Shown here one piece after another: positions 2,916 through 54,084 of a DNA stretch of 64,000 nt. The DNA is from Coriobacteriales bacterium (GTDB lineage: Bacteria; Actinomycetota; Coriobacteriia; Coriobacteriales; UMGS124), in the NCBI GenBank assembly GCA_017515595.1, contig JAFWFL010000080.1, positions 1,200 through 65,199 of the forward strand, read 5' to 3'. Below the pieces are notes generated by a model. That model searched no databases. It was not told the origin of the DNA and worked only from the letters and a program-made list of their open reading frames with translations. Within the stretch, counting starts at the first letter, position 1. The number at the start of each line of letters is the position of its first letter. Made by a program: the position numbers and the translations under genes.

Positions 2916-3533
2916 CTACAAGATGAGCTCATAGCCAATGCGCTCCTTGGTAGGCTCTTCTTTTAGTGTTATCAAGAGCTCGCAGCAACGGGTAAACCCG
3001 GCCTTCTCGAGCACATGTTGCATGGGAAGATTACCGGCATGGGTATCTACGCGTACACTCATAAAACCGTCCTGTGCACTCATGTGCTTTGCGGCTTCAA
3101 CCATCATTGATGCAATACCCTTCCGGCGGGCTTCATTGGCAACCGCAACACGATGAATACAGCTGTATGTTGGAACTCCTGCTTTGAGTGTATTGGGAGA
3201 AGAAGTAAGCCAGGCGCCGCTTGTAATGTTGTCATAGTCTGCTTCTCCGCCTCCGCAAACCGCCATGCACCCCAAAACATGAGCAGGCTCCCGGGCGTCA
3301 ACCGCAACCCAGGTCCAGCCCTGGGAAATATCGTTGATAAGTGTGTCCTTACGCGGAGTCCCGCCCTGCCATTGGTCTATGCCCAAAGCCCCCAATGCTG
3401 CCCTGGCTTCATCTGTTACCCGAATCAGCTCATCGAGATCCTGCGGCTTTGCCTGCCTTAGCATTATGTCTGATACATTGTCCATGTAACCAGGCCTTTC
3501 TCCCCAATCGTCCGCTCTCAAACGCATGCCCAC
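2916..3533 (-). CDS. GNAT family N-acetyltransferase
   Basis: 205-aa ORF with an acetyl-CoA binding-type segment (HRVAVANEARRKGIASMMV). The real start may be the ATG at 3485 (MDNVSD..), which is preceded by GGGGAGAAAGG. Confidence 0.75.
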   Translation of the reverse strand: MGMRLRADDWGERPGYMDNVSDIMLRQAKPQDLDELIRVTDEARAALGALGIDQWQGGTPRKDTLINDISQGWTWVAVDAREPAHVLGCMAVCGGGEADYDNITSGAWLTSSPNTLKAGVPTYSCIHRVAVANEARRKGIASMMVEAAKHMSAQDGFMSVRVDTHAGNLPMQHVLEKAGFTRCCELLITLKEEPTKERIGYELIL

Positions 3534-3663: not shown

Positions 3664-3708
3664 TTTTCGAGCCTGACAAAAGGTGTGTCCTTTTGTCAGG
3701 CTCGAAAA
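3664..3708. repeat. Palindromic repeat copy 1 (core CCTGACAAAAGG-TGTGT-CCTTTTGTCAGG, arms extended to 20 bp)
   Basis: Perfect 20-bp inverted arms at 3664-3683 and 3689-3708 around a 5-nt loop. The copy lies about 80 nt downstream of the cysK stop. The same 12-bp-arm core recurs at 39901, 39940 and 53984. Confidence 0.85.
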
Positions 3709-3789
3709 CAAAAAGGAAGCCGGCTCTTTTTGGGAGAGCAAGCCGGCTTCTGCTGGAAAGCAAAAGAATACAGGGAGGAGAGAGTCCTG

Positions 3790-4725
3790 TTATTCTTCTG
3801 CAAAGAGTGGGGTCGAAAGATAACGGTCACCGGTATCAGGAAGCAGCACCACAATGGTTTTGCCCTTGTTCTCGGGGCGTTTTGCGAGCTCAATAGCAGC
3901 CCATGCGGCTGCGCCTGAGGATATGCCTACCAGAACGCCCTCTTTGTGACCAATAAGCTTACCGGTTGCAAATGCGTCCTCGTTAGCCACGGGAATAATC
4001 TCGTCATAAATACCGGTATTCAAAACATCAGGCACAAATCCTGCACCAATACCTTGGATCTTATGCGCTCCCGCTGCGCAGCCTGAAAGCACTGCAGAGC
4101 TTGCCGGCTCTACGGCGACAACCTTTACCTCGGGTTTGCGTGACTTGAGATACTCGCCTACGCCGGTAATGGTTCCGCCTGTACCGACACCGGCTACAAA
4201 GATGTCTACTTCGCCGTCGGTATCGGCATAAATCTCGGGACCTGTTGCCTCAAAATGCGCCTTGGGGTTTGCGGGGTTTACAAACTGGCCGGGAATAAAG
4301 CTGTTGGGGATCTGTGCCGCAAGCTCCTCGGCTTTTGCGATAGCGCCTTTCATGCCCTTCGAGCCTTCTGTAAGCACAAGCTCCGCGCCGTATGCCTTCA
4401 TAATCTGGCGGCGCTCAACACTCATGGTCTCAGGCATGGTAATAATAAGGCGGTACCCCTTTGCAGCGGCAACCGCAGCAAGACCAATACCGGTATTTCC
4501 CGATGTGGGCTCAATGAGAACTGAGCCGGGAACAAGTATCCCTTTTGCTTCTGCATCCTCAATCATAGCCTTGGCAATACGGTCTTTAACCGAACCGGCA
4601 GGGTTAAAGTATTCCAGTTTAGCAACAACCTTGGCCTCAAGGCCGAGTTCTTTTTCTATATGAGTCAGCTCAAGCAATGGAGTTTTGCCTATCAGCTGGT
4701 CTGCAGCAGTATAAATCTGTGCCAT
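3790..4725 (-). CDS. cysK: Cysteine synthase A (O-acetylserine sulfhydrylase)
   Basis: 311 aa. [20 protein letters not shown], the PLP-lysine context NPAGSVKDR, and the TSGNTG and [10 protein letters not shown] loops are all canonical CysK/CysM motifs. SD GAAGGAGAG lies upstream. Confidence 0.92.
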
Positions 4726-4899: not shown

Positions 4900-6171
4900 C
4901 TAATCAGGCATATCTATGTGTGCCATAACGGCGCCTATAGCGTTGAACTTCTCAACAAAGGCTTCGTAGCCGCGTTTGATGTGGAAGGTATCCGAGACAA
5001 GCGTGTAACCCTCTGCAATAAGGCCCGCGAGAACAAGAGCTGCTCCTCCGCGGAGATCAGGAGATTTAACGCGGGCGCCCATAAGTTTGACCGGACCTTT
5101 AACAAGAGCATGACGGTCTTCTACACGAATCTCAGCACCCATGCGAATAAGATCCGCTACAAGCATAAAGCGGTTTTCAAAGACATTTTCGGTAATAAAA
5201 CTCGAACCGTTTGCCTGGGTTGCCAAAACCATAAACTGTGCCTGCATGTCGGTTGGGAAACCGGGGAAGGGCAATGTTTGAATATCAGCCGGAACAAGGG
5301 TTTTCTCGGGCGCGCAAACAGTAACACGGTTTTCACCGCGTTCAACACGTATGCCCATGTATTCCATTTTACGCAGCGGGATATCAAGATGCACCGGATT
5401 AAAACCCTCTACCGTAAGCTCATCTGCCGATAACGCTCCGGCTACCAAAAACGTTCCCGCTTCTATGCGGTCGCCAACGGTTGTATGATCGCAGGCATGG
5501 AGCTCGTCTACGCCGTGAATCTCTACTACGTGAGAACCGGCATCGCGTACATCAGCGCCCATTTTGTTGAGCATGTTTGCCAAATCAACAATCTCGGGTT
5601 CGCGGGCAGCGTTTTCTATAATGGTTGTGCCTTTGGCAGTGATAGCACCCATCATAATATTCTCGGTCGCACCTACGCTCGGGAAATCGAGCGTTACCAG
5701 CGCGCCTTTGAGACCGCTTGAGGCATCGGCAACAATGTCGCCGTGGTCATTATCAAAATGAACACCAAGCATTTTTAAGCCCGCGAGATGCTGGTCAATG
5801 GAGCGGGCTCCAATGTTGCAGCCTCCCGGCATTGCTACAACCGCATGCTTAAAACGGGTAATAAGCGGACCGAGAATAGAAATGCTCGCACGCATTTTTG
5901 ATACGAGTTCATAAGGAGTAACCCATTTATCTGCTGCAGAAGTATCTATAGTAAGCCGGTGCTGTGTCTCATCATAATCAACAGAAGCGCCGAGCATAGT
6001 GAGCACCTGACCCATAAGCCCAACATCAGAGATATTTGGCACGTTTGAAAGGTGATACACACCCGGAGCCATCATGGTTGCAGCCATAAGCTTGAGAGCC
6101 GAGTTTTTAGCACCCCCAACATGAACGGTTCCATGTAATTTGTGGCCGCCTTCAACTCTTATGACGTCCAT
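4900..6171 (-). CDS. murA: UDP-N-acetylglucosamine 1-carboxyvinyltransferase
   Basis: 423 aa. [32 protein letters not shown]-terminus. Active-site Cys context [23 protein letters not shown]. Confidence 0.95.
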
Positions 6172-15916: not shown

Positions 15917-17574
15917 GCCTGTTTGGCGTCATCAATAATATCTATAAGCTCCTGGCGTGAATGAATGCCAAGCTTACTATAGACATTTTTTATATGTGAC
16001 CGCACGGTATTGATTGATACACCCAAAAGGTCGGCCGTTTTCTCAAGGCTGTACCCGCGCGAGAAATACTGCGCTGTTTCGCTTTCGCGCGCGGTGAGAG
16101 CATAGGTTTTTGCGACGTAATCCAGGGCGTCTTCGAATGTGCGGCCTTCAGGGAGGGGGCCGTTGGGTTCGCTCGGGGTTTCTGCGGGTTTCTCGGCCTG
16201 TAAAGACAATGAATCGCCCGTTGTCTCTTGAACGGGGCTTGCGGCGCCGGCTTGCTTCATAAGCATGTTATTCAAAAGCACTATAACACCTATGAGCAGG
16301 ATAAATATTATGCCCATGCTCACATATGAGGTTACCATTGAGGAATCAAACAATGCCTCGCGCAAGATTGCCGGAACGCCAATAAAGCGGGCAATACCTG
16401 AGATAGACTCGGGAATAAAGAGCATGAGACCCAACAATCTCGTAAGCCCAAACGGCATGTTTGGCGCCGAGAAAATCGCGAACAAGAACATGAGCAGCGT
16501 GAAACATACCCGCGCTGTGGTAATAAAGTCGCTCCCGAGAATACGCAGTTCTTCATCAGGCGAGAAGACCAAAAGAAACACTCCGGCAAAAAACAGTACC
16601 ACAAATACGGTCCAGTTCCAGAATATAACACGCTTGACCGGGAATTCCCGGACGAGGAGGATCACTGATATCAAAACCACCACAACATTAATGACGGTCA
16701 TCATTGTGGTATGCCAGGTAAGTCCCGTATTAACATACCAGGGATTTGTGACACCGCGGGCAACGTTACCGGTAAAACAAAAGAGCGCAAACAAGATCAT
16801 GAATGCAAACGGAATACCCGCTGATGCGAGCGATTGTGAAAGCGAAGGGATGGGTTTTTGCTCAGGGACTTCTATGCTCAGTCCACGTGACGGATGTGTA
16901 AGGAGAACCAAGCAACCAATGGTAAGCACAGGACAAAGCAAACGTATGATCCCTTGCAATACTATGGGCATCAACAGAACCGCATTGCTAAAAAAGCACA
17001 GGCCAAATGATAAAAACGCTGCGATTGCCGCCTTTTGTGCGGGCATCTCCATAAGCGCAGAGCCATACCACAAGACTGCCGCCATAAAATAAAGCGCGCT
17101 TAAAACCGCTCCTACTGATAAGACCGCTCCAAGGATTTCTTGCGGAACAGGAATCCAGAGCGCAAGCTCACTGATAATACCAATAACTGCAAGACACACA
17201 GCAAACACAAGAGACTCATGCCGGTGCATCCAATAAGCTATGCGCGGAGCAAGAAGCGCAACACATAAAGAAAAAAGCGCAAACGCTATGGCAAACGAGG
17301 TATAAGCAATTTGGGAGGTAGCGGTATCATACGCAAAAGAAGCAACCAAAAACGAGAGATGGTGAGCCCTGAAGTACGGCCAAAGCGGCGCCATACCCAA
17401 AGCAGGTAAAACAATATGCGCGAGTCCTTTGTCCGCAACGCCCACAAGCCTCTCCCTTGCTTTGCTGCCCACAAAATCATTTTTAAAATTGTAGCACGTC
17501 CAAGACCGTACATGACAACAAAACCGTAAGAGTTCCGTTTTATGCATGATGCGGTTCATATGAACGGAGAACAT
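15913..17574 (-). CDS. Polytopic-membrane LuxR-family transcriptional regulator
   Basis: About 10 or more hydrophobic segments followed by a C-terminal LuxR/FixJ HTH (TARESETAQYFSRGYSLEKTADLLGVSINTVRSHIKNVYSKLGIHSRQELIDII). The start codon is uncertain because no SD is seen at any of the first Met codons. Confidence 0.8.
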   Translation of the reverse strand: MFSVHMNRIMHKTELLRFCCHVRSWTCYNFKNDFVGSKARERLVGVADKGLAHIVLPALGMAPLWPYFRAHHLSFLVASFAYDTATSQIAYTSFAIAFALFSLCVALLAPRIAYWMHRHESLVFAVCLAVIGIISELALWIPVPQEILGAVLSVGAVLSALYFMAAVLWYGSALMEMPAQKAAIAAFLSFGLCFFSNAVLLMPIVLQGIIRLLCPVLTIGCLVLLTHPSRGLSIEVPEQKPIPSLSQSLASAGIPFAFMILFALFCFTGNVARGVTNPWYVNTGLTWHTTMMTVINVVVVLISVILLVREFPVKRVIFWNWTVFVVLFFAGVFLLVFSPDEELRILGSDFITTARVCFTLLMFLFAIFSAPNMPFGLTRLLGLMLFIPESISGIARFIGVPAILREALFDSSMVTSYVSMGIIFILLIGVIVLLNNMLMKQAGAASPVQETTGDSLSLQAEKPAETPSEPNGPLPEGRTFEDALDYVAKTYALTARESETAQYFSRGYSLEKTADLLGVSINTVRSHIKNVYSKLGIHSRQELIDIIDDAKQA

Positions 17575-17590
17575 AAGAGCTTGAATAGCA

Positions 17591-17620
17591 TTGACACTTA
17601 TATCTCGTTATCTCTAAGAT
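17591..17620 (+). promoter_or_regulatory. Candidate sigma70-type promoter for hicAB (TTGACA-N18-TAAGAT)
   Basis: TTGACA at 17591-17596 and TAAGAT at 17615-17620, about 100 nt upstream of hicA. The region is AT-rich, so chance matches are likely. Confidence 0.3.
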
Positions 17621-17640
17621 AATTCAAATACATTGTGAGT

Positions 17641-17697
17641 TATATATTAATTCGCTTAATATTAAATCTATTTAATACTTAAGTAGATTAATATATA
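17641..17697. promoter_or_regulatory. AT-rich nested palindrome upstream of hicA (candidate TA autoregulation operator)
   Basis: TATATATTAAT (17641-17651) is the exact reverse complement of ATTAATATATA (17687-17697). An inner ATTAAAT/ATTTAAT pair lies between them. Confidence 0.35.
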
Positions 17698-17716
17698 CAT
17701 ACCGAAAGGAAACACA

Positions 17717-17893
17717 TTGACAAAGCAAAGAATGCTGATCAAAGAACTCATAGATGCCGGATTTAAGTACATTAAAACAAACGGAGGACATGATAAGTAC
17801 CGAAAAGATAAGATAACAATTGCAATTCCTCATCATAGAGAAATAAGTGACCAGATGGCAGACATCATTAGAAAAGAAGCAGGTTTAAAATAA
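17717..17893 (+). CDS. hicA: HicA-family mRNA interferase toxin
   Basis: 58-aa ORF, below the track cutoff: (M)TKQRMLIKELIDAGFKYIKTNGGHDKYRKDKITIAIPHHREISDQMADIIRKEAGLK. It matches the HicA/YcfA pattern (G-G/S-H, PHH, C-terminal ..AGL). The TTG start at 17717 lies 4 nt after GAAAGGAAA; an alternative ATG is at 17732. Confidence 0.8.
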   Translation: MTKQRMLIKELIDAGFKYIKTNGGHDKYRKDKITIAIPHHREISDQMADIIRKEAGLK

Positions 17894-17935
17894 TCCAATT
17901 CTACTTTTTATTCTTATCATACGATCGGAGCAAAA

Positions 17936-18385
17936 ATGATTTTTATTCGAGAATTTGAATTATTCGAGAATGAAGGTATGACACTAGCAATTCCTCATGA
18001 TATGCCAGGTGGTACAGAGGGCTATAATTTTCAGGATGCAATCGAAATGGCCGCGGACTGGCTTAGGATGATGGCGGAGGATGCTCTTATACGTGGAGTT
18101 GATCTTCCCGGTGGAAATCTGGGTCAAGAACCGGAACATGGCGGTAAAATGGTTATCATTGCCATCCAGGCTGATCTAAAAAACGTCCCATCAATAACTG
18201 CGCTCGAAGCTGCTCAAAAACTTGGCATATCTCAAGCCCGTGTAAAACAGCTTTGCGATTCCGGACTTCTTGAGTCATGGAAAATTGGCAGAACGCGTAT
18301 GGTCTCACTCGATTCTGTCAATGCTCGTCTTGCAGAGCAGCCAAAAGCCGGACGCCCAAAACAAACTGAAGTAGTTTCTGCATAA
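17936..18385 (+). CDS. hicB: HicB-family antitoxin with a C-terminal HTH DNA-binding domain
   Basis: 149 aa, 42 nt downstream of hicA. HicB-like N-terminal part (..EGMTLAIPHDMPGGTEGYNFQDAIEMAADWL..). C-terminal HTH ITALEAAQKLGISQARVKQLCDSGLL. SD GGAG. Confidence 0.78.
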   Translation: MIFIREFELFENEGMTLAIPHDMPGGTEGYNFQDAIEMAADWLRMMAEDALIRGVDLPGGNLGQEPEHGGKMVIIAIQADLKNVPSITALEAAQKLGISQARVKQLCDSGLLESWKIGRTRMVSLDSVNARLAEQPKAGRPKQTEVVSA

Positions 18386-18478
18386 ACCCAAAATATTCAA
18401 CAACCATAATCAACAAACATAAATAACTGAAATATGGTGAATTACGTAGCTCATAAAACGGAAAAGAAACAAAATGGT

Positions 18479-19033
18479 TTATTGTTTTTCATCATCTGAA
18501 ATCATCCATCGTTTTGGTGTTTTGATTTGATGAAAGCGAATCGAGGGTCTTGTAAGTCTTATGTCGGTAAACCCCTGAATTGTATCAACCACATCACTAT
18601 TGCAAGAATCATTAAGAAGTATTAATGATAAAGCACCAGTTGGACACGCTTCGACACAAGCCGGTATTTCTCCTCTATCCTGACGGGTTGCGCACATGTT
18701 GCAACGGGTTACTTTATTGGTAGAAGCATTGTATTGCGGAGCATGGTAGGGGCAAGCTGTCACACACCTACGGCAACCATTACATAGACTCGAATTTATT
18801 TCAACAATCCCGTCATGTCTCTTATTAAATGCCCGCTCGGGACATACTCGGAAACACTCCGGATTTTCGCAGTGATTACATGCCATCGAGAGAAAAACTC
18901 CCTCTTCGATCTCAATTACGTGACGCCAGTGAATATGAGAAGGAGTTAGGTTTTCATTACGGCACGCCATTTCGCATGCCCGGCATCCAATACAAAGGCT
19001 GACATCAACAAGAAAAGCCTTCGGGTTGTTCAT
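18479..19033 (-). CDS. 4x[4Fe-4S] ferredoxin-type subunit (DmsB/PsrB-like) of the Tat-less molybdoenzyme
   Basis: 184 aa with four Cys clusters: CIGCRACEMAC, CNHCENPECFRVCP, CNGCRRCVTACP and CNMC..ACVEACP. Its start overlaps the upstream catalytic-subunit gene by 29 nt. Confidence 0.88.
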   Translation of the reverse strand: MNNPKAFLVDVSLCIGCRACEMACRNENLTPSHIHWRHVIEIEEGVFLSMACNHCENPECFRVCPERAFNKRHDGIVEINSSLCNGCRRCVTACPYHAPQYNASTNKVTRCNMCATRQDRGEIPACVEACPTGALSLILLNDSCNSDVVDTIQGFTDIRLTRPSIRFHQIKTPKRWMISDDEKQ

Positions 19034-21014
19034 ATGGGCTCACCTTTCTGATGCGGACCTTGCAATCAAAAAACGGGCAACTCTCTGCTGAAGGAAATGA
19101 CCCTCCAAAAAGATTGTTTACACAGAACCGATCGCTCTGTTCAACATAGACAACATTATTGGGAAGTTTTGCATTAACACAAGCCTCAGAAAGCATCGAT
19201 CCTCTTGCAGAGCACACCTCAATGGTATCTCCATTACGAATCTCTTGATTTGAGGCAATATGTGAGGATATCTCAGCGGTTGGCATCTTCTTTTGCATGG
19301 GATTAAGCCAGGTGAGAGTCTCATATTGAGAGTGAAATTTCAAAAGAGACTGAGGTGTAAGTAAATAATAAGGATAATCACAAACTGACAGACTGATTTC
19401 TGAATGTAAGTCAGATAATAAAGAACTATCAAAACAATATCTCCAGGTATCCGGGAGAGGTTCTTTGATTTTCTTAAATGACTGTTTGCGCAAATCATCA
19501 ATAGAGTTAAAACCGTACTCATCCTCCATCTGAGGAATAAAAAACTTGCATATCCAGTCAAGTGCGTTCATTTCTGATGGAAATGCCGAGAAACCCGGTT
19601 TGATTCGGTTTATATAGCTTGATAGTTCTCGGGCAATTTGCAGATCACTCTTTGATTCATAAAATGACGGAAGAGTTTTTTCATTCAAGGTAAGCCAATT
19701 ATGCCAAAAACTGACAATCAGATCTTCTTCCTCAAAAAAGGACGCTGCCGGCAACACAATGTCTGCTTGGCGGGCTGTTTTTGTGAGATACAAATCAACA
19801 CACACAACTAGCTCCAGCTGGCTAAATAAGTCATACCAAGCAGCTAAGTCAAAACCCTGTGAAAGAGGGTTGGCACAAGAAACCCAAAGCATTTTGAGAG
19901 GAGGATCCTGCAGGCCAAGAGCTTCTTGAGGAAAGGTATTTATATTAACAAATCTTCCCTCGCCATCAGTGCTGTGAGGTTTGCAGTACTCTATCATAAA
20001 CTCAGCAGGATCAGTGTAAGCTTTATTGTAAAAGTACAGACCTCCACCGGCAGTATAATAACTCCCTGTTAACGCAATCAATGCACTGATTGCGTTAACC
20101 GCTTTTCCAGCGCCACGATACCGTTGCATCCCAAACCCTGTCAGACATGCTATCGCGTTATGCTCCAAGAACAATTTACATAAACAATCAAAAGCTTCCG
20201 TTGAGAGTCCTGTATGAGAAAGTACCTCATCTATTAAAAGCCTATCGAGCTCCCGGGCAAATTCAGCGTAACCACATGTGTGTTCCTTTATAAAGCCTTC
20301 ATCTATGTGTTTTACTTCAACGAGCCGTTTGGCAATACCCAATGCCAGCCATTCATCAGAATGAGGCTCGATTTGAAAATAGTAATCTGCTCTCTTTGCT
20401 GTATTGGTAAAAACCGGATCTATAACAACAAGAGGAACGCTTTTGTCTTTACGGGCTTTGTAAATAATACGCATCAGATTGATATTTGTAGATGTAGGAT
20501 TTCCTCCCCAAATAACAATAAGATTAGCTTTATGCATGTCTTCAGGATCAGGGTGAGGAAAACTTCCCATGGTCTTCTCGAGCACATGTATTCCGGTGTC
20601 GGCGCATATGTTTCCTGTCAAATTGGTACACGATCCCAAACCGGCAAACATACCTTCAACAGCATGGTGAAGAAGGCCAATGTTTCCCGTTCCTTTATAG
20701 TATCCAATGGCTTTATTGGACCCAAAGGTTTTGTTGAGCTCAATTATCTTTAATGAAATAATATCATAAGCCTGGTCCCAGGAAATACGCCGCCATTCCC
20801 CTGATCCGCGGCGCAGTTGTTTGAGTGGATATCTTAAACGATAATCATCAAGTGTATATTGAATAAGTGAATAGCCTTTTGCACAAAGACTCCCTTGGGT
20901 ATAGCCATGCTTTGAATCGCCAATTACTCTTATTAGTCTTTCACCTTTTACATTGGAAAACATTGCGCATGATCCGTAGCAGTGACGCGGACAGGCATTG
21001 CGAAATTGAGTCAT
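19005..21014 (-). CDS. Molybdopterin (bis-MGD) oxidoreductase catalytic subunit, no Tat leader (predicted cytoplasmic), substrate unknown
   Basis: 669 aa from ATG 21014 (MTQFRNACPRHCYGSCAM..GSLCAKGY = C-x3-C-x3-C..C FS0 cluster motif). Overall layout is that of COG0243-type molybdopterin oxidoreductases (..VIWGGNPTSTN.., ..VVIDPVFTNTAKRAD..). No RR motif is present in any upstream in-frame extension. Confidence 0.85.
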   Translation of the reverse strand: MTQFRNACPRHCYGSCAMFSNVKGERLIRVIGDSKHGYTQGSLCAKGYSLIQYTLDDYRLRYPLKQLRRGSGEWRRISWDQAYDIISLKIIELNKTFGSNKAIGYYKGTGNIGLLHHAVEGMFAGLGSCTNLTGNICADTGIHVLEKTMGSFPHPDPEDMHKANLIVIWGGNPTSTNINLMRIIYKARKDKSVPLVVIDPVFTNTAKRADYYFQIEPHSDEWLALGIAKRLVEVKHIDEGFIKEHTCGYAEFARELDRLLIDEVLSHTGLSTEAFDCLCKLFLEHNAIACLTGFGMQRYRGAGKAVNAISALIALTGSYYTAGGGLYFYNKAYTDPAEFMIEYCKPHSTDGEGRFVNINTFPQEALGLQDPPLKMLWVSCANPLSQGFDLAAWYDLFSQLELVVCVDLYLTKTARQADIVLPAASFFEEEDLIVSFWHNWLTLNEKTLPSFYESKSDLQIARELSSYINRIKPGFSAFPSEMNALDWICKFFIPQMEDEYGFNSIDDLRKQSFKKIKEPLPDTWRYCFDSSLLSDLHSEISLSVCDYPYYLLTPQSLLKFHSQYETLTWLNPMQKKMPTAEISSHIASNQEIRNGDTIEVCSARGSMLSEACVNAKLPNNVVYVEQSDRFCVNNLFGGSFPSAESCPFFDCKVRIRKVSPYEQPEGFSC

Positions 21015-21151
21015 ACGGCAATACCCCCTCAATCAGACAACAGCGTGGGCTTCAACTCATCCCGCCTGCATTTTTAGCTGGCACCAACAAAAATAATACG
21101 TAATTATACTTGAAGTATTGTTTAGTTTTGAACCCAGCATCTTACAAAAGA

Positions 21152-22408
21152 TTATATAGTTTTATCGATGATATGCAAGCGCTTAATCTTAAACACAGCA
21201 ACAAGATTTAAACGCGTCTCCATGTCATTAAGAGAGCAATCCAGAATAGACTCTATTTTTGAAAGCTTGTATCGCAGGGTATTTCGGTGCAAAAAAGTAA
21301 TCTGTGCGGTCTCGTTTACACTAAAACCGCATTCTACAAAGCTTTCGAGAATACTTAGAAGATCCTCCTTTTCGTCTTCATACTCAAGAAGCGGCCCAAG
21401 AATTTGATGAAAGTACCCTCGTAGATCTTCAAGATCGTGTTTAAACAGAATACAGTCAAGACCCATTTCATTGAAAAACGAAATTTTTTCTCCCTTTAAG
21501 GTGCCAATCTCAAGAGCAATTTTCGCTTCTTGGAAGCTACGGAAAAGATCTACGGGCTCCTGATATGGCTGTCCTACACCACATGCGAGAGACGATATGC
21601 CGTTGTTCTCGTCAAATGATTTGAGAATATCCTCAAAGAGGCCAATTACTTCTCGTTTTTGATCAGATTTGCAGTTTCCTTTTGTTTCAATTACTGCTGT
21701 TATCATATTCCTGCTGATAGTTGTCCCCGTACTTGTCCCCCATTTTGAAGCGAGAACCCTGTCAACAGTAGTCTTAAGTATCTCTGCTGAATAGGAGTTT
21801 TGCAGAGTAGTAGAATAATCATAGGTACTGACCACCAGAACAAGATGCGGATGGTGAAACTCCCAGCCCCATATTTTGCCCATAGAAATAATATCGCTAT
21901 TGCTTTTTATGTTGCCAAATAACAGGTCATAGAAAAAGGCTTCTTTTAGTCTGCGGTTTTCTTGTTTGATACTTACTCGATTTTTGATGTGTGTCACATA
22001 AAGTGATAACGCCACTTCTATTGAGTCGTTAAACCTAGTGGGGATAGAACTATCTTCATCGCACAGAACGAGACAATATCCAAGCACTTGCTCATTCTGG
22101 GTTATAGTCCATCCGAATGAGCGGTATTGATTTTCTGTTCCCACTAAAACGCATGAAAAGGTGTATTCGTTCTCATTAACAGGCTTGCGCTGTATAATAC
22201 GATAGCCATTAGTTCCGAGGTTGTCCGGCGATGCAGCAACCACCTCTCCGTCAGCAGCCAAAACAACAACGGGACTATTTATCATAAGAGACAGGGCATC
22301 TGTAAGGGCACTGACATTCCGACCGGATGCTATAATCAATTGTTTAATGGTAACCTGCGATGCAGCATTATCATTGTCTGATTTCATGCTCTCACCTGTA
22401 ATTCTCAA
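21152..22408 (-). CDS. PucR/CdaR-family transcriptional regulator
   Basis: 418 aa. The C-terminal HTH ..NETAQITFLHRNTLRYKLSKIESIL is the PucR C-terminal HTH signature. The alternative start ATG 22387 (MKSDNDN) follows GGTGAG. Confidence 0.82.
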   Translation of the reverse strand: MRITGESMKSDNDNAASQVTIKQLIIASGRNVSALTDALSLMINSPVVVLAADGEVVAASPDNLGTNGYRIIQRKPVNENEYTFSCVLVGTENQYRSFGWTITQNEQVLGYCLVLCDEDSSIPTRFNDSIEVALSLYVTHIKNRVSIKQENRRLKEAFFYDLLFGNIKSNSDIISMGKIWGWEFHHPHLVLVVSTYDYSTTLQNSYSAEILKTTVDRVLASKWGTSTGTTISRNMITAVIETKGNCKSDQKREVIGLFEDILKSFDENNGISSLACGVGQPYQEPVDLFRSFQEAKIALEIGTLKGEKISFFNEMGLDCILFKHDLEDLRGYFHQILGPLLEYEDEKEDLLSILESFVECGFSVNETAQITFLHRNTLRYKLSKIESILDCSLNDMETRLNLVAVFKIKRLHIIDKTI

Positions 22409-22416
22409 AGACAGGG

Positions 22417-23109
22417 TTATTGCCAGGCATTATCCAACTCAAGAATAATATCAGCATAGTTTTTAAGGAACCGGGCAACAGCAAGAGCGGCTTGCGGATA
22501 GAGCAGGCATGGCATTGCGGTTTGGATAGCATTTGCGAAACTATCAATCCATACAAGCAGGTGCTTGTTTAAAAAATGCTGTTGGCTAAGCAGGCTTTTC
22601 TTGGCGTTTTCCATATCTCCCTGCTCGTAATATGAAAAAGCAGAGGCGGCCAGGTGTGCCATAAAATCTAACTCAAGAGCAAGATGATCATCTGCTTCAT
22701 GCGGATAATTACTCGGAACATAGCCATGCTGTTTATACAGCCTGCGCACATCAAATGTGCAAGACTGGAAAAGCATACGCTCATCAGTTGCAAAAACTGA
22801 TTCCCAAGGCGGGGCCGGAAGTTTTGATGGCCCAACTAAAAGATGCGTGTATTCGCTTAACAAACTGTCAAGCAAGCTGTCGTGATCTGCCAATCTTTTT
22901 GATGTAATATCCTCAAAAGCATTAAGAAGTATTTGCAGGTTTTCATCATTTTCATTGAATACCATGCCAAGTACGCTGAATGTATACTTATCAGCAAACA
23001 CATCAAGCATGGCATCATCTGGCTCGCTTCCAAAAATTCGATGAAAAAGCTGGTAGCTGTAATGGCACGCAGCCAGTATAACGGCAATGCTATCGTCTTG
23101 TGTAGCCAT
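22417..23109 (-). CDS. TorD/DmsD-family redox-enzyme maturation chaperone (module 1)
   Basis: LLVGPSKLPAPPWESVF..YPHEADDHLALELDFMAHLA is the TorD/DmsD signature. The start is set at ATG 23109 by alignment with the paralog at 37504. The track start at 23127 is a TTG. Confidence 0.85.
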   Translation of the reverse strand: MATQDDSIAVILAACHYSYQLFHRIFGSEPDDAMLDVFADKYTFSVLGMVFNENDENLQILLNAFEDITSKRLADHDSLLDSLLSEYTHLLVGPSKLPAPPWESVFATDERMLFQSCTFDVRRLYKQHGYVPSNYPHEADDHLALELDFMAHLAASAFSYYEQGDMENAKKSLLSQQHFLNKHLLVWIDSFANAIQTAMPCLLYPQAALAVARFLKNYADIILELDNAWQ

Positions 23110-23133
23110 GAATAAAACCGCCTTCAATGTCCC

Positions 23134-23163
23134 GAACCCCTTCCGTCAAACCGGAAGGGGTTC
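23134..23163 (-). other. 12-bp GC-rich hairpin between the Fe-S subunit gene and the chaperone gene (module 1)
   Basis: GAACCCCTTCCG (23134-23145) and CGGAAGGGGTTC (23152-23163) are exact complements with a 6-nt loop. There is no U-tract on the coding strand. Confidence 0.7.
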
Positions 23164-23223
23164 AGAGGTTATTTCTGATGAATGTATATTATCATGCATT
23201 CACTCTGATTACAGACATATATT

Positions 23224-23802
23224 CTAAACTTGTTTTTCTCTGAAATCCGGTAATTCAGCGCATGCTTTGCAGGAAATCAGAAGAGAAGGCTCTGTCATGC
23301 CTGCTGATGGCAGAATGGGGAGTTCACTCACAACGTCATCACCATGCTTCGCTCTGAGCTCATCTAAATCTCCAAATTCAAGAGCCCTCATTGGACATGC
23401 GTCAACACATGCCGGATTCCATCCATTATCGCGAAGCTGTTTGCAGCTGTCGCACTTTTGAACTATGCCCAGAGACTCAATATACTGCGGAACTGAATAA
23501 GGACAAGCTTGGATGCATGACAGGCAGCCAATGCATAGTTCATCATCGTGTTGTACGGTTCCATCTTCAGCAACAAACATGGCTCCAACAGGACATACGG
23601 GAACACATGCCGGATTTGCACAGTGGTTGCAAGTTCCCGAATAGTGATATGCTTTGGTTTGAGGGAATACTCCAACTTCAAAGGTTCGAACATTCCGGAA
23701 AAGAACTCCTATTTCAAGATTATTCTTATCCTTACAAGCAACTTGGCAGGCACGGCATCCGGTGCAGATGGTTTGATCAAAATAGAATCCCAGGGTACCC
23801 AT
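23224..23802 (-). CDS. DmsB-like 4x[4Fe-4S] electron-transfer subunit (module 1)
   Basis: 192 aa with CTGCRACQVAC, CNHCANPACVPVCP, CIGCLSCIQACP and CDSC..ACVDACP. Its ATG overlaps the stop of the A subunit (TAATG). Confidence 0.9.
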   Translation of the reverse strand: MGTLGFYFDQTICTGCRACQVACKDKNNLEIGVLFRNVRTFEVGVFPQTKAYHYSGTCNHCANPACVPVCPVGAMFVAEDGTVQHDDELCIGCLSCIQACPYSVPQYIESLGIVQKCDSCKQLRDNGWNPACVDACPMRALEFGDLDELRAKHGDDVVSELPILPSAGMTEPSLLISCKACAELPDFREKQV

Positions 23803-26510
23803 TACTCGTCATCTCCTTCCACAACAGCGATTCTCTGAGGACGTTCGACATCGGGGAGAAGGGGTTCTCCTGCGTACTTCTCAAACGTTACAATATTCGA
23901 ATTGAAAGCCTCAACACCTTGACCCTGAAGCAGTGCACTTGTCAGAATATTGTCTGCACCGCCCCTGTCGATGCCGGTTTCGGGATCAGGATCTACCCAA
24001 GAACCATGAGGGAGGCTAACAATACCAGGCATAAGCCTCTCGGTAACAACAGCCCTACGCAACGTCTTGCCATTCATGTTCTCGATAAGAACGGTATCGC
24101 CGTCTTCAATTCCCTTTTCGCGAGCATCTGATGCATTGAGATATACAGGGTTCGGAAATGCCTCACGCAGCTGAAGTACGTTGTCAAAACCGCTATGGGC
24201 ACGACGCAGGTAATGCGGGTTGATAATTTGATATGGGTATGCACCTTTCTCTTTGGTTTCCCAATTTTCAAAGGTACATTCATAGCCATTCTTAGGAGGT
24301 ACGTAAGTAGGCAAGGGTTTAATCTCACTCCAGCCTGCTGCATTGATTCGCTCGGCAAGCCCGGTCGAGTAGATCTCGATCTTTCCGCTGGCTGAAGAAG
24401 GCAGAGGATGAGCTTCAGGATCATTACGGAATGCTTCGAAAGCAATATAGCCATAGTTGTCACCGGGGCTACGCTTTACCTGATAGTATCCCGTCTTCAA
24501 GAATTCTTCGAGAGAAATCTTGCCTTCTTGCGGAGTACCCTCAACACCCCATGATTCAATATCTTCTTCAGTGATCGTAATGAGAGGACCATAGTCAACG
24601 CCATTGTCCTGGATTACTGTACAGCTCTTAAGCTCATTAAAGAATTGCTGCTTGGGTCCAAACGGATACACGCTGTCAACGTCAACTCCCAACCGCTTAC
24701 ACAACTCAATATCAATCTCTTGATCAGTTTTTGCTTCAAAGAGAGGCGGCACAACGTTGCGGTAAGCAATAACAACTTCGCGGTTGGGGAAGGAGTTTCT
24801 GGGGAAACCACCAATGGTTTCCCATTCAGTGGTTGTAGGAAGAACAAGGTCAGAGAACATCGCGCTGGTTGAGAGTGTGTAATCCTGTGTGACTACAAAC
24901 TCGACCTGTCTAACTGCTTCGATACCGCTGTTCATATCTTCAGCGGTCTGAAGCTTGTTCATATACTTATAGAAATAAATCATTTCGATATCGATATCTC
25001 GCTCTTCCCTCGGAAGATAGAGACTCTTCCCACAGAAATTATATTTGTGGGTAAGGATTGCATTCCATACCTCGCCCAGATGGATAGCATCATCAACCGG
25101 GTTTGATATTGTAGGAAGTCCGGCTGATCCGGGATTGACCAGCGAGAGACCGCCATTTGCGGTAAAATAGCTGTGGCTTGGGCCTGTCATGTGTCCCGAC
25201 TTACCCATATGGCCGGTCATGGCACCAATTGTCGCAATCATCTGAGGAAGGTTATCGGAATTCTGCGTACGTGCGCTTGCCCAACCACAAACAATGGCAA
25301 CCTTTTTGTCAACACGCATCTCCTGGGCAAGATACCTAATGCGCTCAGGTTCAAGACCGCAGATCTCAGATGCCCATTCAGGTGTCTTAGGAATACCGTC
25401 ATAAGTACCAAGCACATAATCCTTAAAGTTCTCTTCAGGATTAACACCTTCAGGCATATGATCTGCATCAAAACCCAAAGTACAACGGTCAAGGAAGTCC
25501 CAATCAATAAGAGGATTGTTTTCAGGATCATCTTCAGTGATCAGCGTATAGGCAACACCAAGGAGTAATGCCATATCGGTACCGGGGCGTACAGGCAACC
25601 AATCAGCGTCCATAGCTTGGGCAAGGTCATTGTAATAAGGATCAACAGCAATAAACTTGGCACCGGTTTTCTTTGCCTGAGCCCAATGATAATTATTAGT
25701 ACCGGCAGAATTCCATGCAGTATTGAGTGAAATCATAATGATGGTCTCACAATTACGCAGATCAAGCCTGTCGTTAATAGTATCGCGAGACGTGTATGAA
25801 GCCGCCCATTGAATATAGCCGGGGCGGTCAAAGACAGGATAGCTATAAGGCATATAGCCCATTAAAAACGGAGTAACCTGCCAAGAACCATATGAAGTAG
25901 AACCATAGTGAGACACGGCTCCACCATAAGAATTAATAGCGTTACAAGGTCCACCAAATGAAAGGATAGAACGGTTTCCGTACTTCTCGACAACGCGTTT
26001 AATCTCGCTGGACAGGATATCAAAAGCCTCATCCCATGAAATACGCACCCATTCATCCCTGCCGCGCAGCGATTTGTCTCCGCCACCTGGCTCCCAATGC
26101 TTACGCTTCATAGGGTACTTAAGACGGTCAGCTCCAAACACATTCTTGCGCTGGGAACGGCCGCGAATACAACCGCGTTGCTGAGGATAATCTGGTGAAT
26201 CCTCGTGAGTATCGTCTGTTTTCTGACGTACAACTTCGCCGTCTACAACTAATGCATAGTTAGCGCACTGACTACCACAATTGAACCAGCAGGCTGCGGG
26301 AATCCATTCTCCCTTATCACTCACAGCGATGTCCACGGAAGAATTGGTATCTTCTGCTTCAGTTTGTTCTGCACTCACCATATCTGCAAGTGCTAAACCA
26401 TTACCCATATGGCTTGTAAAGGCCAATCCAACGGCACCAACTGCAGCTGCATTCAGGAAGTCTCTCCGGTCAACCATTTTGCCGGCTGCTTGTTTAAGGA
26501 AATCTGACAT
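23802..26510 (-). CDS. Tat-exported DMSO-reductase-family molybdoenzyme, DmsA-like catalytic subunit (module 1)
   Basis: The start is set at ATG 26510, preceded by GGAGGAGTCA. Twin-arginine leader MSDFLKQAAGKMVDRRDFLNAAAVGAVGLAF. FS0 motif CWFNCGSQC..C. DmsA-like blocks DRLKYPMKRK, GTYDGIPKTPEWASEICG and SGKIEIYS. Confidence 0.9.
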   Translation of the reverse strand: MSDFLKQAAGKMVDRRDFLNAAAVGAVGLAFTSHMGNGLALADMVSAEQTEAEDTNSSVDIAVSDKGEWIPAACWFNCGSQCANYALVVDGEVVRQKTDDTHEDSPDYPQQRGCIRGRSQRKNVFGADRLKYPMKRKHWEPGGGDKSLRGRDEWVRISWDEAFDILSSEIKRVVEKYGNRSILSFGGPCNAINSYGGAVSHYGSTSYGSWQVTPFLMGYMPYSYPVFDRPGYIQWAASYTSRDTINDRLDLRNCETIIMISLNTAWNSAGTNNYHWAQAKKTGAKFIAVDPYYNDLAQAMDADWLPVRPGTDMALLLGVAYTLITEDDPENNPLIDWDFLDRCTLGFDADHMPEGVNPEENFKDYVLGTYDGIPKTPEWASEICGLEPERIRYLAQEMRVDKKVAIVCGWASARTQNSDNLPQMIATIGAMTGHMGKSGHMTGPSHSYFTANGGLSLVNPGSAGLPTISNPVDDAIHLGEVWNAILTHKYNFCGKSLYLPREERDIDIEMIYFYKYMNKLQTAEDMNSGIEAVRQVEFVVTQDYTLSTSAMFSDLVLPTTTEWETIGGFPRNSFPNREVVIAYRNVVPPLFEAKTDQEIDIELCKRLGVDVDSVYPFGPKQQFFNELKSCTVIQDNGVDYGPLITITEEDIESWGVEGTPQEGKISLEEFLKTGYYQVKRSPGDNYGYIAFEAFRNDPEAHPLPSSASGKIEIYSTGLAERINAAGWSEIKPLPTYVPPKNGYECTFENWETKEKGAYPYQIINPHYLRRAHSGFDNVLQLREAFPNPVYLNASDAREKGIEDGDTVLIENMNGKTLRRAVVTERLMPGIVSLPHGSWVDPDPETGIDRGGADNILTSALLQGQGVEAFNSNIVTFEKYAGEPLLPDVERPQRIAVVEGDDE

Positions 26511-28545: not shown

Positions 28546-28574
28546 AACACACGCTCAATCATACGCAGTCAGTA

Positions 28575-28609
28575 AAGGCCGTGCAGTTTAAACTGCACGG
28601 CCTTTTTTA
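28575..28609 (+). terminator. Rho-independent terminator after the flavoprotein gene
   Basis: Stem GGCCGTGCAGT/ACTGCACGGCC (28577-28587 / 28592-28602) followed by TTTTTT (28603-28608). Confidence 0.85.
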
Positions 28610-38199: not shown

Positions 38200-39654
38200 C
38201 TATCCCATAAAGCGCTCGACCACGTCGAGAAGTTCACCTTTACTCGTGATACCAAGCTTACGGTAGATACGCTGTCGATGGCTCGAGACAGTGCCGGCTG
38301 AGATGTTGAGCGTCTGCTGTATATAGGCGGTTTCTCTCCCGCGTGCCAAAAGCGCAAAGACCTCGGTCTCACGCTGAGAAAGAGCATAGTACTTGGCAAT
38401 TTTGGTTATAACCGTATCAAGTGATTCAGTTGTGACCTGGGGCAGTTTGCTTGCAAGTGTTGCCTTGTAGAGTTCATGCTCAGAGAATAAGAAAAGATAT
38501 GCCAACAGCATGGCTGAAACAGAAACCAAAACAAGTATTCCAATTGACTCATCGTGAGCAATAGCATGCCCCGCCCAGACCGTACGCACGGTAAACAATG
38601 AAGCAAGATAACCGGTCCAATAAAGGGCAAGTTCCAGAGAAAGCGCTTTGTCTGTGGGTAGTTTTGACCGCATAGCGATAAGCGGTGAGAACATCCAGAA
38701 TACAAGCTGGAACCCAAGTCTGCCGGTAAGGGCCATAAGGTACGAGAAGAGCGGTGATGTCTGGTGTAACAGATAAAAAACACCGCTTACAACCAAAAGA
38801 AGCGGAACAATACGATACATAGATTGCAAAGAGATATTTGGCGCAAAAAGCAATACGAGAGCTATAGCCACCAAAACCGCAATTATTACCACACGAAGAA
38901 CGGTCAGCAAGGTACCGGGCGTCTCCGAAACGGCAATTACATCGAGCTCGGCTGCAAACGAACAAAAGATTGACGCTGCGGCAAAAACTCCCATTGCAAT
39001 ACTTGCTCTTATAGCAAGATTTGGGTCTACCTTTTCTTTATCAGGTTCGTCCATAATCTGACTTCCATTCAGCTGTGCTGTTTTTGCCTGAACGTTCCAA
39101 ACACGAAGCAGAAAGAAAGCCGAAAGAGGCCCGCAAACAATGCCAATAACTTCATAAACAACGGTTAGATTGTCGACGCCAATATTGAGAATGACACCAA
39201 GTAAGTAACCTACCGCGATACCCGCTACAGCTACAACCCTGTCCATATGCGAAAAGGTAACACCCCAGAAGATAAGCATGAGTGCCACGCCAACACCGGC
39301 AAGAAGACCAAATAAAACACCAAAAACCGGTCCATCCAATGGGAATAGCAGAGATCCTGCCGCCATACAGACAACACCCACTGTGAGTATTTTTTTCTCG
39401 TTAACTCGACCGTAAATACCTCTGCAGGCAGACACTGCAAATGTTGCTATAAAAAAGAACGCATAGAAATCATACCGTCCAATACCTGCAATATTATACT
39501 GTGACGGGATAACGTTATTAAGCATATAATAAATAGAAATATGCAGCATAAGCAGGCCAAAGCCTGCAACTGAGAAAATAAAAGAAGCGTAATCAGTCTC
39601 TGAAAAGCTTAACAGACTCGGCTTTTGGGTTGTGTCTGCAGTCTGGTTGTTCAC
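38200..39654 (-). CDS. Polytopic-membrane LuxR-family transcriptional regulator
   Basis: 484 aa. About 10 or more hydrophobic segments, then LSQRETEVFALLARGRETAYIQQTLNISAGTVSSHRQRIYRKLGITSKGELLDVV. GTG start preceded by GGGAGAGG. Confidence 0.85.
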   Translation of the reverse strand: MNNQTADTTQKPSLLSFSETDYASFIFSVAGFGLLMLHISIYYMLNNVIPSQYNIAGIGRYDFYAFFFIATFAVSACRGIYGRVNEKKILTVGVVCMAAGSLLFPLDGPVFGVLFGLLAGVGVALMLIFWGVTFSHMDRVVAVAGIAVGYLLGVILNIGVDNLTVVYEVIGIVCGPLSAFFLLRVWNVQAKTAQLNGSQIMDEPDKEKVDPNLAIRASIAMGVFAAASIFCSFAAELDVIAVSETPGTLLTVLRVVIIAVLVAIALVLLFAPNISLQSMYRIVPLLLVVSGVFYLLHQTSPLFSYLMALTGRLGFQLVFWMFSPLIAMRSKLPTDKALSLELALYWTGYLASLFTVRTVWAGHAIAHDESIGILVLVSVSAMLLAYLFLFSEHELYKATLASKLPQVTTESLDTVITKIAKYYALSQRETEVFALLARGRETAYIQQTLNISAGTVSSHRQRIYRKLGITSKGELLDVVERFMG

Positions 39655-39900: not shown

Positions 39901-39929
39901 CCTGACAAAAGGTCTGTCCTTTTGTCAGG
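39901..39929. repeat. Palindromic repeat copy 2 (CCTGACAAAAGG-TCTGT-CCTTTTGTCAGG)
   Basis: Exact 12-bp arms and a 5-nt loop, in the divergent intergenic region between the LuxR gene and ackA. Confidence 0.85.
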
Positions 39930-39939
39930 CAATAAGGAA

Positions 39940-39968
39940 CCTGACAAAAGGACGGACCTTTTGTCAGG
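39940..39968. repeat. Palindromic repeat copy 3 (CCTGACAAAAGG-ACGGA-CCTTTTGTCAGG)
   Basis: Exact 12-bp arms. The loop is the reverse complement of the copy-4 loop, so the orientation is inverted. The copy ends 24 nt before the ackA ATG. Confidence 0.85.
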
Positions 39969-53983: not shown

Positions 53984-54015
53984 CCTGACAAAAGGTCCGT
54001 CCTTTTGTCAGGTTA
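53981..54015. repeat. Palindromic repeat copy 4 (TAA-CCTGACAAAAGG-TCCGT-CCTTTTGTCAGG-TTA)
   Basis: 15-bp arms. The left arm includes the pheA TAA stop codon (53981-53983). Confidence 0.85.
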
Positions 54016-54023
54016 CGCAAAGT

Positions 54024-54054
54024 GCCCCGGAGGGTTTCTCCGGGGCGCTTTTTG
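54024..54054 (+). terminator. Rho-independent terminator after pheA
   Basis: GCCCCGGAG (54024-54032) pairs with CTCCGGGGC (54038-54046), followed by GCTTTTTGTT. Confidence 0.8.
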
Positions 54055-54084
54055 TTACTTTGGTTTTAACGTGCTAGGCGCAAA

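Follow-up and report, generated by a model that had tools for sequence, protein, structure and literature searches.

The stretch of DNA analysed here, called the window below, is 64 kb long and comes from contig JAFWFL010000080.1 of a metagenome-assembled genome (MAG) of a Coriobacteriales bacterium, an uncultured rumen member of the Eggerthellaceae recovered from ruminant gut samples. Its acetate kinase is 83-88% identical to the acetate kinases of Eggerthellaceae and Adlercreutzia, and the open reading frames (ORFs) of the window are all of the housekeeping kind (atp operon, murA, cysK, hom, molybdopterin oxidoreductases, ackA, aro genes, carAB). Among these genes a perfect palindrome, CCTGACAAAAGG-N5-CCTTTTGTCAGG, is found in four exact copies: at 3672-3700 (copy 1, beside cysK), at 39901-39929 and 39940-39968 (copies 2 and 3, a doublet before ackA), and at 53984-54012 (copy 4, at the end of a pheA-type gene). 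The unit is 29 bp long, with two 12-bp arms and a 5-nt loop, or 41-45 bp when stem extensions are included, and it occurs at a density of four copies per 64 kb.

All 24 arm positions are identical across the four copies, the arms are perfectly complementary in every copy, and the asymmetry of the unit resides in the loop alone. The loops read TGTGT in copy 1, TCTGT in copy 2, ACGGA in copy 3, and TCCGT in copy 4. Copy 3 is inverted relative to the others, its loop being TCCGT on the - strand, and variation is confined to loop positions 2 and 3. The ends of the unit read CCTG.../...CAGG, and the flanks differ at each copy. Folded as single strands, the units reach about -34 kcal/mol (z about -10). 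A preliminary description of this DNA had given the same four sites, arms, spacer, and loops, the inverted third copy, and a position between genes or at gene ends for all copies. Each of these statements agrees with the sequence; all four copies lie outside ORFs save for the outer 6 bp of the copy 4 stem.

The family stands far outside the background of the window. In 100 dinucleotide-preserving shuffles the pattern never occurred, even with up to three mismatches, and the number expected by chance is 0. The 12-mer arm occurs eight times without mismatch, each time as an arm of one of the four palindromes, and no unpaired arm is present in the 64 kb at 0-1 mismatch. With up to two mismatches there are 12 matches against 5.6 expected, a number reached in 2 of the 100 shuffles; the four non-exact matches all carry two mismatches, and the excess is explained by the eight exact arms. 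A scan allowing up to seven arm mismatches and loops of 3-8 nt revealed no decayed copy with 1-6 arm mismatches in the window. Perfect hairpins with a stem of at least 9 bp occupy 13 loci (28 raw census entries versus 1.85 in shuffles), four of which belong to the family, while each of the other nine has its own stem sequence. The 24 fixed positions correspond to about 48 bits, which by our own estimate would be expected to exceed what selection for a binding site maintains. Given the complete identity of the arms, the copies are taken to descend from one another by copying, either recently or under selection for recognition of the stem.

Local coincidence or duplication, which the preliminary description had named as the outcome that would undo its proposal, was contradicted by the shuffles and by the unrelated flanks of the copies, which are not those of a segmental duplication. 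An assembly artefact might be suspected as well, given the small number of known copies (four) and their origin in a metagenome-assembled genome. However, the copies are internal to a 65-kb contig and recur in contigs that were assembled independently for two further samples of the same study: the doublet precedes ackA in two contigs (L077 and L078), and copy 4 lies behind pheA in a third (L075), with the neighbouring genes unchanged in all three. No rearrangement is seen in these three assemblies at the copy 2/3 or copy 4 junctions. Elements that recur in this way are real and stable in position, and the likelihood that chance, duplication, or misassembly produced the family is negligible.

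Copy 1 extends over 3664-3708, with its core at 3672-3700 and the loop TGTGT on the + strand. Its perfect arms, TTTTCGAGCCTGACAAAAGG / CCTTTTGTCAGGCTCGAAAA, are 20 bp long in the hairpin census, the length given in the preliminary description, and its RNA fold has -33.8 kcal/mol (z = -10). The copy is flanked by cysK (3790-4725, - strand) and by a GNAT acetyltransferase gene (2916-3533, - strand), which is paired with the homoserine dehydrogenase gene hom. Between copy 1 and cysK, and touching the former, is a canonical intrinsic terminator of cysK (3705-3750, - strand), with the stem GAAGCCGGCT / AGCCGGCTTC at 3716-3750 followed by CTTTTTGTTTT on the - strand; these coordinates come from our reading of the sequence and from an RNA fold. 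A consensus terminator scanner did not flag this terminator, probably owing to its loop of 13-15 nt. The final TTTT of its T-tract (3705-3708) forms the outermost arm bases of copy 1.

Copy 4 covers 53978-54018 around its core at 53984-54012 (loop TCCGT). Here the census corrects the preliminary description, which had put the arms at 15 bp: they form 18 perfect base pairs, GCGTAACCTGACAAAAGG / CCTTTTGTCAGGTTACGC. The outer 6 bp of this stem overlap the end of the pheA-type gene, which encodes a chorismate mutase/prephenate dehydratase, and the GCG TAA of the left outer arm is the last codon (Ala) and the stop codon of that gene. The C-terminus of its product, ...GSYSEMA*, is conserved in homologues (...GSYSEIA*), and the left flank of copy 4 is therefore native coding sequence. 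On the other side, a canonical intrinsic terminator abuts the copy (54019-54056, + strand), with the stem GCCCCGGAG / CTCCGGGGC at 54024-54046 and then GCTTTTTGTT. In the corresponding contig of the same species from another sample (L075, 4250-4280), comparison with positions 53965-53990 of the window shows three substitutions within 17 bp, TAC to TAA, TAA to TTA, and CCT to TCT, with the rest identical. They shift the pheA stop and disrupt the outer stem of copy 4 together with one core pair, and could be either a strain polymorphism or an assembly or low-coverage error.

Copies 2 and 3 are the left and right members of the doublet (39901-39968), each with 12-bp arms, separated by a 10-bp spacer, CAATAAGGAA. 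The doublet is placed within the 338-bp divergent region between a gene for a LuxR-type membrane regulator (38200-39654, - strand) and ackA (39993-41204, + strand), with 24 nt between the end of copy 3 and the ackA start codon. Its single strand forms one stem of 29 bp, with -53.6 kcal/mol (z = -11.4). This single stem is preferred because the two loops pair with each other, TCTGT with ACGGA, through one G.U pair. Two inverted units with a short spacer that form one long hairpin correspond to the layout of REPINs, the paired form of repetitive extragenic palindromes (REPs); there is one such doublet in the window, and its inverted orientation had a 50% chance of arising at random. No sigma-70-like promoter is predicted across the doublet region, and a promoter was on this ground rejected as the identity of the element.

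The proximity of two of the three loci to gene 3' ends raises the question of whether the hairpins are intrinsic, possibly bidirectional, terminators that share a stem by coincidence. The scanner did flag copy 3 on the - strand as terminator-like, with a weak T-run. Yet the middle part of the stems is rich in A and T, copies 1, 2, and 4 lack a following T-run on both strands, and copies 1 and 4 each have a separate canonical GC-rich terminator with a T-tract beside them. Moreover, 24 identical bases are not expected among unrelated terminators, and the nine other perfect hairpins of at least 9 bp show what independent stems look like, each with a sequence of its own. We regard this explanation as very improbable, and the element was not assigned to the intrinsic terminator class, as the stems of copies 1, 2, and 4 lack a directly following T-run.

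A second property of the family is the growth of its stems into the flanks. The extensions of copy 1 (TTTTCGAG/CTCGAAAA) and of copy 4 (GCGTAA/TTACGC) are unrelated to each other, and each is perfectly self-complementary; the probability of such complementarity by chance is 4^-8 for the 8 bp of copy 1 and 4^-6 for the 6 bp of copy 4. At both loci one side of the extension is constrained native sequence, namely the T-tract of the cysK terminator at copy 1 and the GCG-TAA of pheA at copy 4. As one side is functionally constrained, the other must be the derived, inverted copy of its neighbour. Quasi-palindrome template switching yields inverted copies of this kind (PMC8794818, PMC3820800). We regard intramolecular template switching as the most economical account of the long stems, with selection for pairing as the alternative.

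Selection for pairing would be central if the element were maintained as an RNA hairpin, that is, as a site for RNase III or other processing, a protector of 3' ends, or an element of the ackA 5' leader, with a protein reading the stem. A perfect duplex of 18 bp or more is indeed possible at every locus (20, 29, and 18 bp), the folding energies are extreme (z about -10), and the growth of stems into locus-specific flanks resembles what such selection would produce. On the other hand, template switching accounts for the extensions without selection, and the orientation of the loop is inconsistent with respect to transcription: RNA from the cysK strand would carry ACACA, pheA RNA would carry UCCGU, and both orientations occur before ackA. 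Copy 1 lies downstream of the cysK terminator and may not be transcribed from cysK, and the palindrome is absent upstream of ackA in a relative whose ackA is 95% identical. No Rfam family corresponds to it either, sub-threshold matches to microRNA (miRNA) precursors being expected of any long hairpin. Taken together, these observations make selection of the element as an RNA hairpin unlikely.

Database searches did not connect the palindrome with any catalogued repeat, a possibility that the preliminary description had left room for. Rfam gave 0 matches at gathering thresholds; at the copies it gave only sub-threshold matches, in which miRNA-precursor models (copies 1-3) and a Burkholderia small RNA model (region of copy 4) scored 23-28 bits where the cut-offs are 43-92 bits. 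No match to the palindrome was obtained by blastn against plasmids and phages, and none to its pattern among viral contigs. A protein database search with the translated frames of the palindrome returned one unrelated match only, and a full-text literature search with the 10-mer of the inner arm returned only unrelated primers and genomes, so that the family was not found described in that literature.

The nearest available relatives were likewise devoid of the element. About 40 kb of their sequence (ackA 95% and 88% identical, pheA 72-73%) contains no copy of the palindrome. The upstream region of ackA in the 95%-identical relative is non-homologous to that of the window, nothing was found in 19 kb from the 88%-identical relatives, and the pheA relatives have genomes of about 70% GC with a different synteny and no motif. 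Since the palindrome is missing from the closest relative, a conserved ackA operator was rejected as its identity. The claim of the preliminary description that the element is specific to this lineage is thus weakly favoured by these 40 kb.

To cover a wider range of organisms, the pattern TGACAAAAGG-N3-8-CCTTTTGTCA was scanned against 185,579 genomes, one per species, in a collection that does not include the organism of the window. The 69 loci obtained, none of them from that organism, were mostly single hairpins in unrelated phyla, often terminators or long stems. A collection of this size holds about 10^8 natural hairpins, so that about 10^2 are expected for any given 10-bp apical stem, and the singletons were therefore treated as chance. 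A scan of JGI metagenomes, again a collection without this organism, gave five unrelated hairpins.

Four MAGs do contain multi-copy, mostly intergenic families with the same 10-bp arms: a groundwater Actinomycetes, a termite-gut Coriobacteriia, a Lachnospiraceae, and an Acidaminococcaceae MAG. The groundwater family (GGTTGACAAAAGGGTC...) has 12 loci with a centre of 3 to 7 nt, and the termite-gut family, CATGACAAAAGGGACsGTCCCTTTTGTCATG, has at least 10 loci and extra half-sites. None of the four shares anything with the window family beyond the 10-mer that was searched for. A large family one or two mismatches away from the query would also give exact matches, so common descent is unproven; natural hairpins and repeat families are also abundant enough for chance to produce such matches.

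Several features of these foreign loci are worth recording. In the groundwater organism (Actinomycetes bacterium nzgw108, JAHEXQ01, loci L005-L068), the 12 intergenic hairpins have invariant TTGACAAAAGG arms around a centre that varies in both sequence and length (3-7 nt). Two of them, L048 and L059, show two-sided changes that preserve pairing just outside the arm (GGC/GCC and AAGT/ACTT), and other loci are changed on one side only. The Lachnospiraceae MAG, from reindeer rumen, carries three TGACAAAAGGGACTGTCCCTTTTGTCA copies and extra half-sites (L001, 2300-2450, 3540-3690, and 7230-7270). Two of these copies adjoin putative tRNA 3'-end fragments (GGTTCGAATCC / GGATCGAATCC, T-arm-like by eye), as is the case at the ends of integrated elements. 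At the three Acidaminococcaceae loci (L004, L021, and L069), a second palindrome family, GCTACAAAAGTGAC-A-GTCACTTTTGTAGC, occurs within about 60 nt of each TGACAAAAGG hairpin, and both families have the common shape ACAAAAG-GAC-N-GTC-CTTTTGT. Seven Collinsella hits (L016, L025, L026, L029, L039, L049, and L058) represent one orthologous locus with TGACAAAAGGACAGTCCTTTTGTCA, conserved in several species; it differs from the window unit in one centre base and is about 35 nt from CGAATATATGTTCG, a LexA-box-like motif.

The preliminary description had offered a recurrent protein-binding site as its alternative. In its most specific form, the palindrome would be a duplex site for a dimeric helix-turn-helix protein of the small serine-recombinase (resolvase/invertase) type or a derivative of it, each monomer of which would contact TGACA through the major groove and the A-tract through the minor groove. 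Such sites would serve for docking, as accessory or pseudo-recombination sites, or as targets of a domesticated nucleoid or regulatory protein. Hix, gix, and res subsites have the same layout, a short spacer flanked by inverted arms of 12 bp in each of which an A-tract adjoins the centre, and the arm resembles TTATCAAAAACC, the half-site of hix, the target of Hin.

One independent lead comes from two of the single hits of the genome scan, in which TGACAAAAGG-N4-CCTTTTGTCA stands upstream of small serine-recombinase genes (PF00239), at 75 bp in Paraburkholderia (L037, 2697-2720) and at 153 bp in Hyphomicrobium (L066, 3034-3057). With the same 10-bp arms and a 4-bp spacer, these are candidate res/hix-type sites. 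The Hyphomicrobium locus contains a further, imperfect site (2928-2950), and in a plasmid homologue (L091) GCAAAATGGGTCCCTTTTGC occupies the corresponding upstream position; both show a related CAAAAGGG/CCCTTTTG palindrome, which in the plasmid lies at about 410-430. A-tract palindromes of this shape are thus plausible as resolvase or invertase sites and recall hix. A blastn search of the recombinase-adjacent sites against plasmids returned nothing. The half-sites of the termite-gut Coriobacteriia MAG, in direct and inverted arrays that bracket toxin-antitoxin cassettes, also agree with this kind of function.

For the window itself, the binding-site proposal is weakened by several observations. 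Unlike hix, gix, and res sites, the window copies are scattered between housekeeping genes without a neighbouring recombinase gene (XerD and Hin queries found none in the whole window), and the other assemblies show neither inversion nor deletion at the junctions covered. The spacer of 5 bp is odd, which makes a symmetric crossover with a 2-bp stagger impossible, and a serine-recombinase crossover site (hix or res site I) was rejected because the centre is 5 bp rather than an even 2-4 bp and no recombinase ORF is present in the window. The centres differ among copies, a regulator would have no target at two of the three loci, placed as they are at gene 3' ends, and the 3 to 7 nt centre of the nzgw108 family fits a loop and not a fixed spacing of half-sites. 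The identity of 24 of 24 positions goes beyond binding-site selection, so that a copying mechanism would still be needed, and the similarity across lineages may be due to chance. We therefore hold a duplex binding site to be possible but doubtful.

A related proposal is that the palindrome serves as a chromosomal docking or recombination site of a recombinase-type protein, within a Coriobacteriia system that moves small gene cassettes; the solo sites and the doublet of the window would then be empty or scar sites. We consider this quite unlikely. The layout behind the idea is found in the termite-gut MAG (WRHL01), at two loci (L020, 3128-5900, and L031, 6185-7926). There, GACAA[AG][AG]GG arrays in direct and inverted orientation, including full palindromes, bracket type II toxin-antitoxin cassettes between housekeeping genes (phd-PIN, relB, an antitoxin with a ParE-like toxin, and two mazEF pairs). 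At the first locus, the 3' end of a thiS-like gene is duplicated at the cassette boundary (4059-4217 versus 5638-5898), and the whole arrangement looks like a cassette-insertion system.

The interpretation we favour, with a probability of about 0.55, is that the 29-bp unit is a lineage-restricted REP-like element of the untagged stem-loop type that has been copied to several extragenic sites of the chromosome. It is a short hairpin-forming palindrome, it is extragenic, two of its three loci abut canonical terminators at 0-7 nt, and it occurs both singly and as an inverted doublet. REPs are 20-40 bp high-copy palindromes, mostly with a GTAG or CGTC tag at one end, and the GTAG type is associated with RAYT genes (PMC3733652). 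Untagged REP-like stem-loop families have been described in M. tuberculosis, D. radiodurans, Bordetella, Brucella, and cyanobacteria (PMC3733652). Because it has no tag and is perfectly palindromic, the window unit is grouped with these untagged families and not with classical REPs.

The comparison with known systems clarifies which part of the REP proposal made in the preliminary description can be kept. With REPs and bacterial interspersed mosaic elements (BIMEs) of Enterobacteria and Pseudomonas, the unit shares its size range, its hairpin form, its extragenic position, often at operon 3' ends beside terminators, and the coexistence of single units with closely spaced inverted pairs. It differs in having arms that are perfect and identical in all copies, without tag or bulge, and in its host, which belongs to an actinobacterial (Eggerthellaceae) lineage with no RAYT gene seen in the window. 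The doublet, with singlets elsewhere, parallels the REPIN-RAYT system (PMC3116915, PMC3337134), although each window unit is already a full palindrome with its orientation visible in the loop alone, and the spacer is merely 10 bp. The untagged families are similar in being extragenic repeated stem-loops without a terminal tetranucleotide or a known dedicated transposase, and they are different in sequence and lineage (PMC3733652). The REP/BIME-like character thus stands as regards hairpin, location, and doublet, and falls short as regards the terminal tag and the imperfect palindrome.

Several points weigh against a REP-like element. A terminal GTAG or CGTC tetranucleotide is absent from all copies, CGTC being present solely inside the loop-stem junction of copies 3 and 4, and no mismatch or bulge interrupts the arms, which are perfect unlike those of classical REPs (PMC3733652). 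The known copies number only four. Neither a RAYT nor an IS200/IS605 or any other transposase turned up within the window, in line with the preliminary description, which had noted the lack of a RAYT/TnpA-REP-like gene: the ORF inventory held none, a Pfam scan of 10 unassigned ORFs returned regulators and oxidoreductases, and, as a lead, phmmer searches of six-frame ORFs from the window and every fetched locus, with IS200, IS608, and E. coli RAYT queries, pointed to no Y1 transposase. As for mobility, no orthologous empty site was obtained, the ackA upstream region of the closest relative being non-homologous. Template switching is read from the end state of the stems, and their effects on transcripts, set out below, are proposals.

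As a REP-like element, the unit would owe its spread to an unlinked enzyme acting in trans, whose recognition target would be the invariant 12-bp stem folded as a single-stranded hairpin, in the way RAYT/IS200-type nucleases act on REPs. Recognition of the stem by such an enzyme would explain an invariant stem with a loop that can vary. At its new site, the palindrome would fold back during replication, and short template switches would copy adjacent native sequence to the other side; stem growth of this kind would give the 20 bp of copy 1 and the 18 bp of copy 4, each in locus-specific sequence. Any effect on the host would act passively, through the transcript. Next to the terminators of cysK and pheA, a stem of 12-29 bp would shield 3' ends or prevent read-through, and before ackA the doublet would introduce a long stem into the leader or immediately upstream of it. 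At pheA, where the stem starts from the stop codon, it would impede termination or the release of ribosomes. From work on REPs in E. coli, a stem within a few nucleotides of a stop codon is expected to lower expression.

Other identities were considered and set aside. The occurrence of a 10-12-mer as inverted pairs at gene ends recalls the DNA uptake sequences (DUS) of Neisseria and the uptake signal sequences (USS) of Pasteurellaceae, whose inverted pairs double as terminators. Those sequences, however, are also greatly over-represented as single copies, including within genes, whereas the 64 kb contain no unpaired 10-12-mer at 0-1 mismatch, and this identity was rejected. A miniature inverted-repeat transposable element (MITE) was rejected because no direct repeats flank any copy, the related flanks being inverted. 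An integron attC site (RYYYAAC ... GTTRRRY) does not fit the ends CCTGAC/GTCAGG or the perfect stems, attC stems being imperfect with extrahelical bases, and the window has no cassette organisation. A selenocysteine insertion sequence (SECIS) element was rejected because its UGA, within CC-UGA-C, would lie between genes and out of frame.

Two further features of the window were recorded. Two convergent genes, one for a flavoprotein with its end at 28545 and the other with its end at 28647, enclose a 32-bp perfect palindrome, AAAGGCCGTGCAGTTTAAACTGCACGGCCTTT (28574-28605), which is unrelated to the family and probably terminates transcription in both directions. The region 16000-24000 has a G+C content of 0.43, compared with about 0.50-0.53 elsewhere, and may be an acquired island. 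It carries genes for a LuxR-type regulator, a helix-turn-helix protein, a PucR-type regulator, and molybdopterin oxidoreductases, and no copies of the family.

To our knowledge, REP-like repeats have been studied almost entirely in Proteobacteria, and a perfectly palindromic family in gut or rumen Eggerthellaceae would extend this picture beyond that phylum. Copies 1 and 4 offer a clear natural example of palindrome growth by copying of neighbouring sequence, in which the copied sides, a stop codon and a terminator T-tract, match what template-switch mutation predicts. Such a family would also provide a short marker with which to type strains and to recognise assembly breakpoints in Eggerthellaceae MAGs. 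For the bacterium itself, the stem at the pheA stop codon and the 29-bp stem before ackA are likely to affect the expression of central metabolic genes.

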